15,268 nucleotides of DNA from a virus, in the UHGV virus genome UHGV-0136483; one strand, 5' to 3'. The notes under the pieces are model-generated. The model saw nothing but the letters and a program-made list of their open reading frames with translations. It searched no databases and had not been told where the DNA came from. How positions within the stretch are numbered: position 1 is the stretch's first letter; the number at the start of each line of letters is the position of its first letter. Of this stretch, positions 9,713-12,942 are shown piece after piece. A program made the translations under genes and the position numbers.

Positions 9713-10009
9713 TCAGTCATTACTGATAGCGCCATAGCGTGAGCGGTAATTACGCAGGCGCGGGTCGATATATTCAGGGAAGTGGGTATATGTGGCTTTG
9801 CGGAATGGTCGGATTGATGTCTGGTAAATTCGCTCGCGTTCTTCTTTCTCTGCAAGCCATATACAATGGCGAAATTCCTTTTCCTCTTTCGTTTCCTGCG
9901 GTAGCGACATTATCAGGTCGTAGTTTTTTCTGAATTTATCCAGCACCTCCGATACGGAATTGCCGGAACAGCGGCGCGCGTCATCCGCACCATACAAAGG
10001 CGCTGGCAT
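9713..10009 (-). CDS. Hypothetical early protein, 98 aa
   Basis: ATG at 10009 with AAGGA 8 nt upstream. No family recognised. Confidence 0.6.
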
Positions 10010-10032: not shown

Positions 10033-10416
10033 TCAGAATGGGATGGAATCGTCGTATTCAGGATGATTTTGATGATTGCTACTTTGCTGCTGTTGGCTGT
10101 TTCCTGAAGTTGCAAATCCAATCTTTGCATTCAGTAATTCAAGAGTGATTGATTGACCATTTTGCCCCTGATAAACATCAACCCTGATGTTTTCTCCGGT
10201 AATTTCTACAATGCCACCTTCAACAAGAACACTACGGTAGTAATCCGCTTGCGCTCCCGGCTTGGCAAATACAACGGCGCTGTAGTTTGTCCATTCTTTC
10301 TTTTTTGTCTGGCGATCGTAATACTGAACGCCAGCACGGATGTTGAATCCGATATTTTCCCCGGCCTGAAACTCTCTTGCGGGCTTGTTTAGTCTTACAG
10401 TAATCGAATGTGCCAT
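10033..10416 (-). CDS. Phage SSB-like protein, 127 aa, with an acidic C-terminal ...EYDDSIPF tail
   Basis: ATG at 10416-10414 overlaps the erf stop (TAATG). The C-terminal DDSIPF mimics the conserved bacterial SSB tail (DDDIPF); a Gln/Ser-rich linker precedes it. The track ORF start at 10506 lies inside erf. Confidence 0.6.
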   Translation of the reverse strand: MAHSITVRLNKPAREFQAGENIGFNIRAGVQYYDRQTKKKEWTNYSAVVFAKPGAQADYYRSVLVEGGIVEITGENIRVDVYQGQNGQSITLELLNAKIGFATSGNSQQQQSSNHQNHPEYDDSIPF

Positions 10417-11021
10417 TAAGCAGCCGCTCCTTCTAATTCTTCTCGTCTGATGTTGTAAACGTCCTGCGCTTTGTGCTGCTCCGGTGTGCCTTCGAGCATC
10501 TTCCACGCTTTGGCGAACGCCTGTTTAAGCTCTTCCACGGTGTTTTTCTGCATTGCTGCGTCAGTGAATGCTTTTAGAACCTGTTCAGGTGTAGGTGATG
10601 GTTTTGATTGCTTTGCTGCTGCGTTCTGCTGATGTTTATGCTCGTCTGTATCTGCATCTTTCGCATCATCTATGCCGAACAAACCATTGAGGCAATACTT
10701 GCGCGCATAAGAACTTGTAGCTCCCGTAACTTGTGCAGAATCCATTCCTTTCTTGCTTTCTTCCTCTCGTGCAAGAGCGGTTGCTGTATGACTGTTTTCG
10801 CCATCGGTAATAGTTGCCGTGGCTTTCACGTAATACCGATCACCAATCAACACAACTTCATCGCTGATTGATAAAAACAGGCCATTCAGTAACGGCTTAA
10901 CGCCTTCAAGAATGTCTTCGCAGCTTCTGTATTTATATTTGCCGAATGAGTTGTACTGATTCTTTGGCGCGTTCAGATTCTCCTGAATAGCTGCCAGTCT
11001 TGCGTAAAATTCTTTGCTCAT
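10416..11021 (-). CDS. erf: Erf single-strand annealing recombinase (P22 Erf-like), 201 aa from MSKEF
   Basis: MSKEFYARLAAIQENLNAPKNQYNSFGKYKYRSCEDILEGVKPLL...YARKYCLNGLFGIDD closely matches my recollection of P22 Erf. The track start at 11051 is a TTG; the ATG is at 11021. Confidence 0.9.
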   Translation of the reverse strand: MSKEFYARLAAIQENLNAPKNQYNSFGKYKYRSCEDILEGVKPLLNGLFLSISDEVVLIGDRYYVKATATITDGENSHTATALAREEESKKGMDSAQVTGATSSYARKYCLNGLFGIDDAKDADTDEHKHQQNAAAKQSKPSPTPEQVLKAFTDAAMQKNTVEELKQAFAKAWKMLEGTPEQHKAQDVYNIRREELEGAAA

Positions 11022-11031
11022 ATGATTGTTC

Positions 11032-11202
11032 TCAGAATGGACACGGCCCAAGGAAATAACGCTGATTTAATACTTCGACTCGGGACAAATTAAGGCATAC
11101 CCGCATTCCTTCGCGGTCACCCTTCTGGCGATACATTAACGCCTGCTGCGTGTACATGCGTCTCTGTAACTTGCTCTCCTTCACTGTGGTTGCAAGTGAC
11201 AT
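11032..11202 (-). CDS. Small hypothetical protein, 56 aa; one of two overlapping candidates between kil and erf
   Basis: ATG at 11202 is preceded by a near-ideal AAGGAG with a 6-nt spacer; the stop lies 10 nt before the erf ATG. Overlaps candidate 11117-11281 in another frame. Confidence 0.35.
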   Translation of the reverse strand: MSLATTVKESKLQRRMYTQQALMYRQKGDREGMRVCLNLSRVEVLNQRYFLGPCPF

Positions 11203-11281
11203 GAATATCTCCTTCGTTACCAATTAATTCTTTCATCTGACGAATGAATTCTTTGTCTGACCAGTTATCTGTAAAACTCAT
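11117..11281 (-). CDS. Small hypothetical protein, 54 aa; the alternative candidate, translationally coupled to kil
   Basis: ATG at 11281-11279 overlaps the kil stop (ATGA). Product MSFTDNWSDKEFIRQMKELIGNEGDIHVTCNHSEGEQVTETHVHAAGVNVSPEG. Below the track cutoff. Confidence 0.35.
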   Translation of the reverse strand: MSFTDNWSDKEFIRQMKELIGNEGDIHVTCNHSEGEQVTETHVHAAGVNVSPEG

Positions 11282-11400
11282 TTCCTGCGATACCACGGAA
11301 GGTTGATAGCTGATTTCATCGCTTTATTTGCTTCAAGCCACATTTTTGAATCACCAATAAATCTGGCTATTACTGCTTTGTTCTGTGCAGCACGAAGCAT
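11278..11400 (-). CDS. kil: Kil-like host-killing / cell-division inhibitor, 40 aa
   Basis: MLRAAQNKAVIARFIGDSKMWLEANKAMKSAINLPWYRRK; the ...IARFIGDSKMWLEA... core resembles lambda Kil, and the gene sits directly downstream of cIII as in lambda. No strong SD. Below the track cutoff. Confidence 0.55.
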   Translation of the reverse strand: MLRAAQNKAVIARFIGDSKMWLEANKAMKSAINLPWYRRK

Positions 11401-11414
11401 CTGGTGATTGATGG

Positions 11415-11546
11415 CTATTTCATTGCGCATAATAAGACCTCAACTCTTTTCCATCCGTCACGTAATTTACGGGTGATTCGTTCAAGTAAAGATTCATTTA
11501 ATTGGAAGGCACCCATGCGAGCGCCTCCCGCGATTGCGTAAATCAT
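11415..11546 (-). CDS. cIII: CIII-like protein (protects CII from FtsH), 43 aa
   Basis: MIYAIAGGARMGAFQLNESLLERITRKLRDGWKRVEVLLCAMK; ESLLERITRKLRDGWKR matches the conserved core of lambda CIII as I recall it. AAGGAA lies 7 nt upstream of the ATG at 11546. Below the track cutoff. Confidence 0.8.
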   Translation of the reverse strand: MIYAIAGGARMGAFQLNESLLERITRKLRDGWKRVEVLLCAMK

Positions 11547-11570: not shown

Positions 11571-12539
11571 TTAGTAGGTTATTTTTGTTGCGAATACTTC
11601 GCCTTTTACGATGGCTGTTATGATATTTTTAGCAACATCTTCTGATGCGCCAACCTTGATAAGGTCAGCAAGTATTTTGTTATTTACTTCTTTCCGGTGA
11701 GCTTTATCCTTTGCTCTGTGCTCTTCTTCGTCCTTGATTCTTTTTTCTTCTGCGATTCTGGCTTGCTCTTTTGCTTCAGCCTCGCGCCGGATTCGTTCAG
11801 CCTCCTCCTGTGCTTTTCGGCGTTCTGCTTCAATTGCCGCCTGCTTTTCTCTTTCAGCTCGTTCTGCTGCCTCTTTTGCTTCGCGCTGTGCTCGTTGCTC
11901 GGCTTCAATGCGTTCACGCTCTGCACGTTCCGCTGCGGCCTTAGCTTCTGCTTCTCGCCTTGCTGCTGCTTCAATTTCGGCTTTTGCCTTTGCTTCGGCT
12001 TCTGCTCTGGCTTTCTCTTCAGCTTCTCTTTTTAAGCGTTCTTCATGCTCTCGCTTTTCCTGCTCCGCTTTGAGTCTTGCCTCTTCTCTTTGGCGGTCAA
12101 ATTCGCGATCCATCAAAATCGCTATTTCATGGTCAGACTCAATTTGCTTTGCGAGAGCTTCAGCTGCTGCCTTAGCTTCTTCTTCGGCTTTAATCCGCGC
12201 CTGTTCCTCTTCATAATCAGTAAGAGGCTGGCGTGCCTTGGCTTTCAGTTCATCAAGGCGATCGCGCACTGTCTTGCGGTTGGCATCAATTAGCTTTGGA
12301 ATTTCCTTCAGTTCAGCAACAAGGTCTTTTCCAAGACCATCGAGATATGTTTTCGTCTGCGCAACTTTATACGCCAGAGAAGCGATCTCCTTTCTGCCCT
12401 TTGCCGTTGTGATATCAGGCACAAAGGACATAACTTCACGTTCAACCTTTTGAAGGATTTCTTCAATCTGGTCGGCAGACTGAAATACAGTCATTGCATT
12501 TGATTTTTCAATAACAACTAAATCTGTTACTTCACCCAT
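11571..12539 (-). CDS. Highly charged Ala/Glu/Arg/Lys-rich coiled-coil protein, 322 aa, with a globular N-terminal domain of about 110 aa; function unknown
   Basis: ATG at 12539 with GAAGGAGG RBS. Residues from about 120 to 290 are almost entirely AEEKAR/AEAEAKAK-type repeats. The plus-strand ORFs across 11697-12453 are low-complexity artefacts of this gene. Confidence 0.75.
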   Translation of the reverse strand: MGEVTDLVVIEKSNAMTVFQSADQIEEILQKVEREVMSFVPDITTAKGRKEIASLAYKVAQTKTYLDGLGKDLVAELKEIPKLIDANRKTVRDRLDELKAKARQPLTDYEEEQARIKAEEEAKAAAEALAKQIESDHEIAILMDREFDRQREEARLKAEQEKREHEERLKREAEEKARAEAEAKAKAEIEAAARREAEAKAAAERAERERIEAEQRAQREAKEAAERAEREKQAAIEAERRKAQEEAERIRREAEAKEQARIAEEKRIKDEEEHRAKDKAHRKEVNNKILADLIKVGASEDVAKNIITAIVKGEVFATKITY

Positions 12540-12573
12540 ATATCCTCCTTCGTTGTATTCTTTAAAAACGCAC

Positions 12574-12942
12574 TCAGGCGGCCTTGATAGTCATATCATC
12601 TGAATCAAATATTCCTGATGTATCGATATCGGTAATTCTTATTCCTTCGCTACCATCCATTGGAGGCCATCCTTCCTGACCATTTCCATCATTCCAGTCG
12701 AACTCACACACAACACCATATGCATTTAAGTCGCTTGAAATTGCTATAAGCAGAGCATGTTGCGCCAGCATGATTAATACAGCATTTAATACAGAGCCGT
12801 GTTTATTGAGTCGGTATTCAGAGTCTGACCAGAAATTATTAATCTGGTGAAGTTTTTCCTCTGTCATTACGTCATGGTCGATTTCAATTTCTATTGATGC
12901 TTTCCAGTCGTAATCAATGATGTATTTTTTGATGTTTGACAT
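12574..12942 (-). CDS. Hypothetical early protein, 122 aa; same size and position as lambda ea10, but the assignment is tentative
   Basis: ATG at 12942 with GAGGA 9 nt upstream; acidic C-terminus. Identification is by synteny and length only. Confidence 0.55.
   Translation of the reverse strand: MSNIKKYIIDYDWKASIEIEIDHDVMTEEKLHQINNFWSDSEYRLNKHGSVLNAVLIMLAQHALLIAISSDLNAYGVVCEFDWNDGNGQEGWPPMDGSEGIRITDIDTSGIFDSDDMTIKAA

Follow-up and report, generated by a model that had tools for sequence, protein, structure and literature searches.

Which protein is encoded between the ea10-like gene and cIII of the viral genome UHGV-0136483, and what could it do there? The stretch of DNA analysed (hereafter the window) is 15,268 nucleotides (nt) long, and the gene in question codes for a protein of 322 amino acids (aa) on its minus strand, at positions 11,571 to 12,539. 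An initial annotation, made from the letters alone, described a hyper-charged coiled-coil protein with a globular N-terminal domain, inserted in the gap between the two genes. We find that the gene belongs to a family that has been catalogued since the Sf6 genome (Sf6 gene 33, phrog_1376). The identity of the protein and its three-part architecture, with two conserved terminal parts and a long charged helix between them, are claims that we hold with high confidence. Our best explanation overall is a soluble accessory protein, shaped like a rod, that serves the general-recombination module of the phage, which is built around a single-strand annealing protein; we propose it tentatively, at slightly less than even weight. 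We add a revision of the labels “TolA” and “coiled-coil”, the architecture in three parts, the finding that the family heads recombination modules across Proteobacteria, and a possible deep link to the family DUF1351.

Family membership and three-part architecture

The protein matches phrog_1376, labelled “unknown function”, from end to end (E=2.9e-109; residues 1-322 align to profile positions 1-362). Diverse relatives match the same profile. The sequence also carries the motifs of the family, both those of the N-terminal part (N-part) and the C-terminal HR..IN...G...AK...I..G.IP.V.I.Y domain. Scans of Pfam (E<=0.1) and NCBIfam assigned the 322-aa protein to no family, and 116 diverse family members gave no meaningful Pfam match. 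Both the missing Pfam family and the PHROG label agree with the first reading of the gene, in which no function was recognised.

A profile search restricted to the N-part, as the initial annotation had suggested, returned a large family with no homologue of known function. At 50% identity it comprises 5,799 clusters with E<=1e-3, of which 2,201 have E<=1e-30. The matched domain is always N-terminal and the proteins mostly have 280-390 aa. This makes it one of the largest phage protein families without a Pfam model. In a species-dereplicated genome scan, members were found in Enterobacterales, Aeromonas, Pseudomonas, Acinetobacter, Xanthomonadales, Burkholderiales, many Alphaproteobacteria and a few metagenome bins that carry the labels of other phyla. 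The spread includes Alpha-, Beta- and Gammaproteobacteria, and the N-part, the charged helix and the C-terminal domain (C-domain) are common to all.

The nearest relatives are Sf6 gene 33 and its orthologues in CUS-3, mEp043/213/234, HK633, IME10 and the Stx1a phages, which belong to the same family and occupy the same place upstream of cIII-kil-erf. Orf53 of phage D3 is an orthologue according to the Sf6 annotation. Over the 969 nt of the gene, nucleotide identity to Sf6 gene 33, to the mEp043 gene named “TolA” and to the CUS-3 gene reaches 98-99%. The window allele has G2 and H273, whereas most orthologues have S and R at these positions. Furthermore, the window gene follows ea10, whereas Sf6 gene 33 follows Sf6 gene 34.

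Thirty-five phage records hold copies with 96-99% identity, among them Sf6 (gene 33), CUS-3, mEp043/213/234, IME10, HK544 and the Stx1a phages. A viral-contig search gave near-identical copies in 80 IMG/VR contigs, all of them from near-identical E. coli phages, and 530 of the 5,426 complete E. coli genomes (~10%) carry the gene. An assembly artefact, which the initial annotation had considered, is excluded because near-identical copies recur in phage records, IMG/VR and complete genomes alike. The gene is an ordinary one, first catalogued in phage Sf6 and present in around a tenth of complete E. coli genomes. In phage lambda, 72 base pairs separate ea10 and cIII and nothing lies in between, so the closeness of these two genes had been correctly noted. 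A lineage-specific insertion in this gap is not supported, the gene being widespread and catalogued.

The N-part is highly conserved across proteobacterial classes. Conservation over residues 46-110 follows a period of 3.6 residues, a value reached by 0 of 500 permutations; therefore one face of a helix is conserved, and this face is rich in Arg, Lys and Asp. With a shallow alignment, AlphaFold2 (AF2) modelled the N-part as a low-confidence bundle. With 134 diverse sequences, it reached a predicted local distance difference test (pLDDT) of 91, with helices at residues 12-20, 22-37 and 46-139. The N-part, first described as globular, is not clearly so; it is predicted to be all-helical and perhaps extended.

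The middle of the protein is dominated by four residues. Between residues 151 and 290, A/E/R/K make up 83%, with 59% charged residues and 8% large hydrophobics, so the description as hyper-charged was accurate. In the wider interval 111-290 the same four residues account for 78%. An AF2 monomer model gives a single continuous helix from residue 106 to 294, with pLDDT >90.

A third part, a conserved mini-domain of about 40 residues at the C-terminus, had been missed by the initial annotation. Nearly all 62 full-length loci from genomes have kept it, across the range from Alpha- to Gammaproteobacteria. When its hidden Markov model was run against all open reading frames (ORFs) of the ~170 fetched loci, the domain was found only in the family's own gene. 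Its profile gave only sub-threshold matches in the PDB (overall E=0.02-0.9), with RuvA domain III (1bdx, E=0.024), the helix-hairpin-helix (HhH) of Hef (1x2i, 0.025) and UBA domains (0.5-0.9); the RuvA domain III structure 1ixs was also among the best. The C-domain is similar to these folds in size and in its helix-Gly-helix pattern, but its terminal hydrophobic strand motif, (I/V).(I/V).Y, is foreign to all three. These matches hint at a small helical interaction module, and nothing more. A fused copy of P22 Arf (PF17585) was also considered for this domain, after a weak hmmscan match of one relative (E=0.61), and was rejected with an hhalign probability of 0.25% against P22 Arf.

Position in recombination modules and possible function

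The neighbourhood of the gene was sampled at 60 loci from different species, considering the first two ORFs of 100 aa or more that follow it. By clustering, an annealing protein (Erf, Rad52, RecT or Sak4), an exonuclease or an SSB is found among these two ORFs in at least 42 of the 60 loci. By domain, ERF is the most common (20), followed by SSB and YqaJ (11 each), DUF3799 (8), RecT (6), Rad52, AAA_24/Sak4 and RNase_T (3 each) and PDDEXK_1 (2). An Erf/Rad52-type protein is present in 27 loci, and in 26 of these it is the first ORF. The spacing is also tight, with the next ORF starting within ~66 nt of the stop codon in 40 of the 60. In P. aeruginosa prophages the order is the family gene, ERF and the YqaJ exonuclease, and in Azotobacter the gene is followed by a Sak4-type AAA_24. 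Enterobacterales have a gap of 300-600 nt, with small genes of the cIII/kil type, before the next ORF.

On the upstream side, a conserved partner was sought by clustering and none was found, with 121 of the 176 upstream neighbours being singletons. Since the upstream neighbours vary and the downstream ones are conserved, the gene behaves as the first gene of a recombination module. The initial annotation had listed host recombination factors among the possible targets, and the conserved synteny with annealing-protein modules supports a link to recombination.

A set of 74 IMG/VR loci, with alleles mostly >=96% identical (a few at ~75-78%), adds to this picture. Here 33 loci have an Erf-type, 31 a Rad52-type and 3 a Sak4-type annealing protein; Abc2 is present in 67 of the 74, and lambda Gam in one. 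The junction downstream of the gene in the IMG/VR loci (L009-L088) is a clear example of module swapping. As one allele occurs with three annealing-protein families, its partners are more likely to be common to all pathways than to be the annealing protein itself.

In two P. aeruginosa prophages of the collection (L006 and L007), an IS605-family OrfB/TnpB gene (Cas12f-like) is inserted into the early operon at about 2.7-3.9 kb of the locus, on the opposite strand and upstream of the family gene.

The window region is the early-left operon of a P22-like/lambdoid prophage. Downstream of the 322-aa gene the order is cIII, kil, two small ORFs, Erf, SSB and Abc2. Farther upstream of the ea10-like gene, on the same strand, are an N-like antiterminator and a cI-type repressor. 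The protein would be expressed as a delayed-early gene of the PL operon, together with cIII, kil, erf, ssb and abc2. We propose that the charged helix 151-282 would act as a semi-rigid ER/K spacer of ~20 nm; if residues 46-294 form one helix, the rod could reach up to ~37 nm. Such a helix would keep the two conserved heads a fixed length apart, making the protein a two-headed spacer or adaptor, with each head binding a different partner. The candidates are partners common to all annealing pathways, such as DNA ends or SSB-coated single-stranded DNA, the host replisome, or host repair proteins. A role related to recombination seems to us about as probable as not, and the adaptor mechanism itself is clearly more doubtful.

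Several observations weigh against this proposal. The searches gave no homology to a protein of known biochemical activity. The two AF2 models disagree on residues 46-110, with a bundle in one and one extended helix in the other, and the invariant residues G70 and P105 fall inside the predicted continuous helix 46-139. Foldseek searches with the N-part model recovered only the family itself from the viral library, and nothing with E<1 from the PDB. Sequence and profile searches of the PDB gave only low-complexity or sub-threshold matches. In Enterobacterales, cIII, kil and small ORFs stand between the gene and erf, a looser coupling. The synteny could also reflect a conserved order of the early operon and not a shared function, and the occurrence with three annealing-protein families speaks against the annealing protein being a direct partner. 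Finally, some alleles lack up to 77 residues of the rod, so its exact length may be non-essential.

The strongest alternative, which we consider unlikely, is a host-directed early protein, either an anti-defence decoy, as the initial annotation had suggested, or a host-takeover factor, for which the synteny would mean operon order and timing only. The PL accessory region that houses the gene also contains ral, ea10, cIII, kil and abc2, whose products all target host proteins, and the independence of the gene from the annealing-protein family fits with this. The N- and C-terminal heads also reassort between alleles, which is what one would look for in modules that follow changing host targets. 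However, across Alpha-, Beta- and Gammaproteobacteria the linkage to recombination genes is tight, often with overlapping stop and start codons, and it is the upstream side that varies. Moreover, the N-part is highly conserved across classes, unlike typical anti-defence proteins, which evolve fast. A PADLOC scan matched no defence model, with a library that does not cover anti-defence proteins.

A second alternative, less probable again, is an analogue of Gam, which would protect linear DNA ends or block a host exonuclease. The slot ahead of erf-ssb or sak4 in Firmicutes phages can hold any one of several genes (Mu-Gam-like, DUF2483, Sipho_gp157 or DUF1351), and the authors who describe this read it as analogous function (PMC8093625). 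Our family fills the same slot in Proteobacteria. Against this, the near-identical enterobacterial loci nearly all have the anti-RecBCD protein Abc2 already, as counted above, and many loci of the family carry an exonuclease of their own. With a net charge of about -1 over residues 151-290, the rod is not a DNA mimic. Neither lambda Gam (PF06064) nor Mu Gam of Pfam matched the window protein or the 116 relatives.

The accessory role in recombination can also be compared with DUF1351 (PF07083, phrog_674), which in Firmicutes phages is reported to adjoin the genes for Erf, RecT/Redbeta and Sak4 (PMC8093625). We saw the same arrangement in phage phi9805 and in 8 of the 10 loci that were retrieved. 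One member of our family is named “DUF1351 domain-containing protein” in UniRef. DUF1351 is found in Firmicutes and Bacteroides phages. The two families have a similar size (~280-350 aa) and both adjoin Erf/RecT/Sak4 and SSB genes. In the profile alignment described below, their N-terminal ~100 residues line up collinearly, with the motifs K..(A)(D/E)L.K..K.(L/I)D..R and (K/R).P...(F/W)E in common. DUF1351 differs in its W.NK middle domain and its C-terminus, has no long ER/K helix, and is sometimes located downstream of the annealing-protein gene.

At the level of models the two families are separate. PF07083 did not match any of the ~120 members tested (the window protein, 116 diverse members and the one named in UniRef) at E<=10, phrog_1376 and phrog_674 are kept apart in PHROGs, and comparing the full-length family with a single DUF1351 sequence by hhalign gave no match. 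Only a profile-profile hhalign of the N-parts (~135 residues) gave a signal, with 86 collinear columns, a probability of 34% and P=4.2e-4. As controls, the reversed profile scored 18.8 against 28.4, and the score was reached by 0 of 150 column shuffles and by 2 of 150 shuffles in seven-column blocks. From these alignments, remote homology of the N-parts is suggestive and not established. A functional analogy, judged from size class and neighbourhood, is better supported than membership in DUF1351.

We also put forward a broader view, to which we give perhaps a quarter of our belief. Under it, phrog_1376 and DUF1351 would form one ancient superfamily, a near-universal and hitherto unrecognised fourth component of temperate-phage recombination modules beside the annealing protein, SSB and exonuclease. 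Its members would be rods with two heads that connect recombination intermediates, as adaptors, with a host machine such as the replisome or SSB-coated DNA, whatever the annealing protein. If true, these proteins may be a missing helper that lets recombineering systems be moved between hosts. As the family heads recombination modules whichever annealing family they contain, a recombination-related role is testable in well-studied phages such as Sf6, the P22-like phages and the mEp phages.

Nature and length variation of the charged helix

We counted 89 pairs of opposite charges at i,i+3/i+4, compared with 56.1 +/- 5.7 in shuffled sequences, about 5.8 standard deviations (SD) above. A heptad register was sought in residues 111-290, and the best one places 14% large hydrophobics at the a/d positions, against 11% overall. 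Because there is no heptad register and the i,i+3/i+4 pairs are enriched, which is the ER/K signature, the charged segment fits a predicted ER/K single alpha-helix (SAH) rather than a coiled coil. The same tendency is seen across the family, where salt-bridge pairs are enriched in the linker with a mean z=4.0. The linker, from the R.PL..WE motif to the C-domain, has a median of 200 aa (interquartile range 181-209), and every linker has an SAH-like stretch (median 59 residues, maximum 156).

The properties of ER/K single alpha-helices are summarised in bioRxiv 10.1101/2022.02.18.481080. The window protein resembles the domains of myosin VI/X and caldesmon in its E/K/R(+A) composition, in the opposite charges from i to i+4, in having no hydrophobic seam, and in being modelled by AF2 as a confident isolated helix. 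It differs in being alanine-rich (25%). As these helices are a structural class and not a homologous family, the likeness gives no functional assignment. The protein is a clear example, from a bacterial virus, of a long predicted ER/K-type helix between two conserved heads.

A homo-oligomeric coiled coil, making the rod a dimeric or trimeric scaffold, was assumed by the initial annotation. It has some points in its favour, as RefSeq sometimes uses the name “coiled-coil domain-containing protein”, the conserved face of residues 46-110 with its 3.6-residue periodicity could be an oligomerisation seam, and long helices in monomer AF2 models can be coiled coils (bioRxiv 10.1101/2022.02.18.481080). 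The lack of a register enriched in hydrophobics at a/d positions, the high charged fraction and the strong enrichment of charge pairs make this reading improbable, a little more so than the Gam analogue, and the coiled-coil label is not supported for the charged segment.

As for the RefSeq name, it is mostly “cell envelope biogenesis protein TolA”; names in the databases also include “TolA” and “colicin import membrane protein”. The long Ala/Glu/Lys-rich helix is like that of TolA domain II, in composition only, and is the probable cause of the name. Unlike TolA, the window protein has no membrane anchor: the highest 19-residue Kyte-Doolittle mean is 1.03, at residue 293 and not at the N-terminus. 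No match to TolA C-terminal domain III or to a curated TolA model was found in Pfam or NCBIfam at E<=0.1, and the context is phage recombination and not tol-pal. A TolA-like cell-envelope protein, as named by RefSeq/PGAP and several phage records, is therefore extremely improbable, its defining features being refuted and its N- and C-terminal parts being specific to our family. Annotations should stop passing on “TolA / cell envelope biogenesis protein”, which is the wrong name.

The predicted single-helix segment is also the part of the protein that varies in length. Relatives have 245, 275, 290, 296, 300, 302, 304, 306, 309, 321 and 333 aa, and all their indels keep the reading frame and map to about residues 125-240 of the window protein. 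The expected expansion and contraction of this region was thereby borne out. An example is the 300-aa HK633 allele, which has lost 66 nt precisely between two imperfect direct repeats encoding AAERAER. The coding strand has 71% purine and 9% T, so the strong bias first reported stands. The repetitive character was overstated and is only cryptic: the longest exact direct repeat has 12 nt and the imperfect repeats 13-27 nt. A true tandem repeat was rejected, as Tandem Repeats Finder (arrays weak, score 43-48) and a repeat finder show only weak, imperfect, short repeats.

A length of 322 aa is by far the commonest, and the proteins of Enterobacter, Citrobacter, Cronobacter and Salmonella retain it with an identity of only 77%. 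Between the E. coli type and the Enterobacter/Cronobacter/Salmonella type, which have the same length, the N- and C-terminal parts are 85-95% identical and the middle ~54%. At constant length, this indicates that composition and length are conserved in the middle, and not the sequence. The heads can also be exchanged. Of the relatives P0166 and P0168, one has an N-part that is 87% and a C-domain that is 22% identical, and in the other the values are 57% and 100%. The two heads presumably reassort by recombination within the low-complexity DNA that encodes the helix. The natural length variants of 245-333 aa, together with this reassortment, are an allelic series for questions on a spacer or ruler.

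Features of the locus and minor observations

The coordinates are collected in Table 1. The ORF first called here is confirmed, with 322 codons and an ATG start, and so are its own ribosome-binding site and both flanking genes.

Table 1. Positions of the gene, its protein regions and its neighbours in the window.
Feature	Position	Strand	Basis
ea10-like gene (DUF2528), immediate upstream neighbour	12574..12942	-	PF10800 E=1.8e-47
Shine-Dalgarno-like AAGGAGG, ATG 4 nt further on	12544..12550	-	read from sequence
Coding sequence (CDS), 322-aa protein, Sf6 gene 33 / phrog_1376 family	11571..12539, stop codon included	-	ORF list, ATG start
Conserved helical N-part, aa 1-125; motifs VPD.TT.KGRKEIAS..KV..(S/T)KTYLD..GK ... 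R.PLT.(W/Y)E	12165..12539	-	(nearly) invariant alignment columns
Transition segment, aa 126-150, reduced version of a middle region that is longer in non-enterobacterial relatives	12090..12164	-	alignments, example sequences
ER/K-type charged helix, aa 151-282, predicted single alpha-helix spacer, variable-length part	11694..12089	-	composition, no heptad register, charge pairs, AF2
Imperfect direct repeat copy 1, encodes AAAERAERE, one endpoint of the HK633 deletion	11913..11939	-	DNA alignment with HK633
Imperfect direct repeat copy 2, encodes EAAERAERE, 66 nt from copy 1, other endpoint	11847..11873	-	DNA alignment with HK633
Conserved C-terminal mini-domain, aa 283-322; HR..(I/V)N..a..aL...G..Ee.AK.ii.aIa.G.iP.v.I.Y	11574..11693	-	conservation
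cIII, immediate downstream neighbour	11415..11546	-	PF02061 E=4e-15
Erf-family single-strand annealing protein	10416..11051	-	PF04404 E=2.4e-44; phrog_155
Phage SSB	10033..10506 (longest ORF; true start probably internal)	-	phrog_44 E=1.2e-29
Abc2 anti-RecBCD protein, operon shared with the 322-aa gene	9713..10009	-	PF11043 E=4e-62

Long spurious ORFs are present inside the gene, at 11734-12216 (+, 160 aa), 11697-12035 (+, 112 aa) and 11684-11974 (-, 96 aa). Those in 11684-12293, on both strands, arise because the coding DNA is purine-rich and of low complexity. In some GenBank phage records, two CDSs are annotated under the 322-aa gene.

Two overlapping small ORFs (59 and 63 aa) lie between kil and erf on the minus strand, at 11032-11296. 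Their counterparts in Sf6 and HK633 are labelled “recombinase” in RefSeq, and the window ORFs have no Pfam match. The 59-aa ORF (11117-11296) shares with P22 Arf a 7-residue match only (WSDKEFI/FSDEEFI); Arf occupies the same slot upstream of erf.

A literature search on the gene, on TolA-like prophage proteins and on phage single alpha-helices found no functional study. Database entries of the family are often partial, with only N-terminal fragments, and one cluster has 245 member sequences. The frequency of such entries suggests that short-read assemblies or gene callers break in or near the low-complexity region.

Two short proteins from E. coli contigs (P0018 and P0026) consist of the first ~70-85 residues of the 322-aa protein followed by unrelated sequence, in one of them with the Abc2 domain PF11043. 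These chimeras resemble the products of prophage deletions in which the gene was joined to others downstream. Lastly, a 3.9-kb contig from an “Actinomycetes” bin (L089, JAFADF010000066.1) carries a copy of the gene at 98% identity, with genes for a Rad52-type annealing protein and an SSB behind it, and is most likely contamination or mis-binning.

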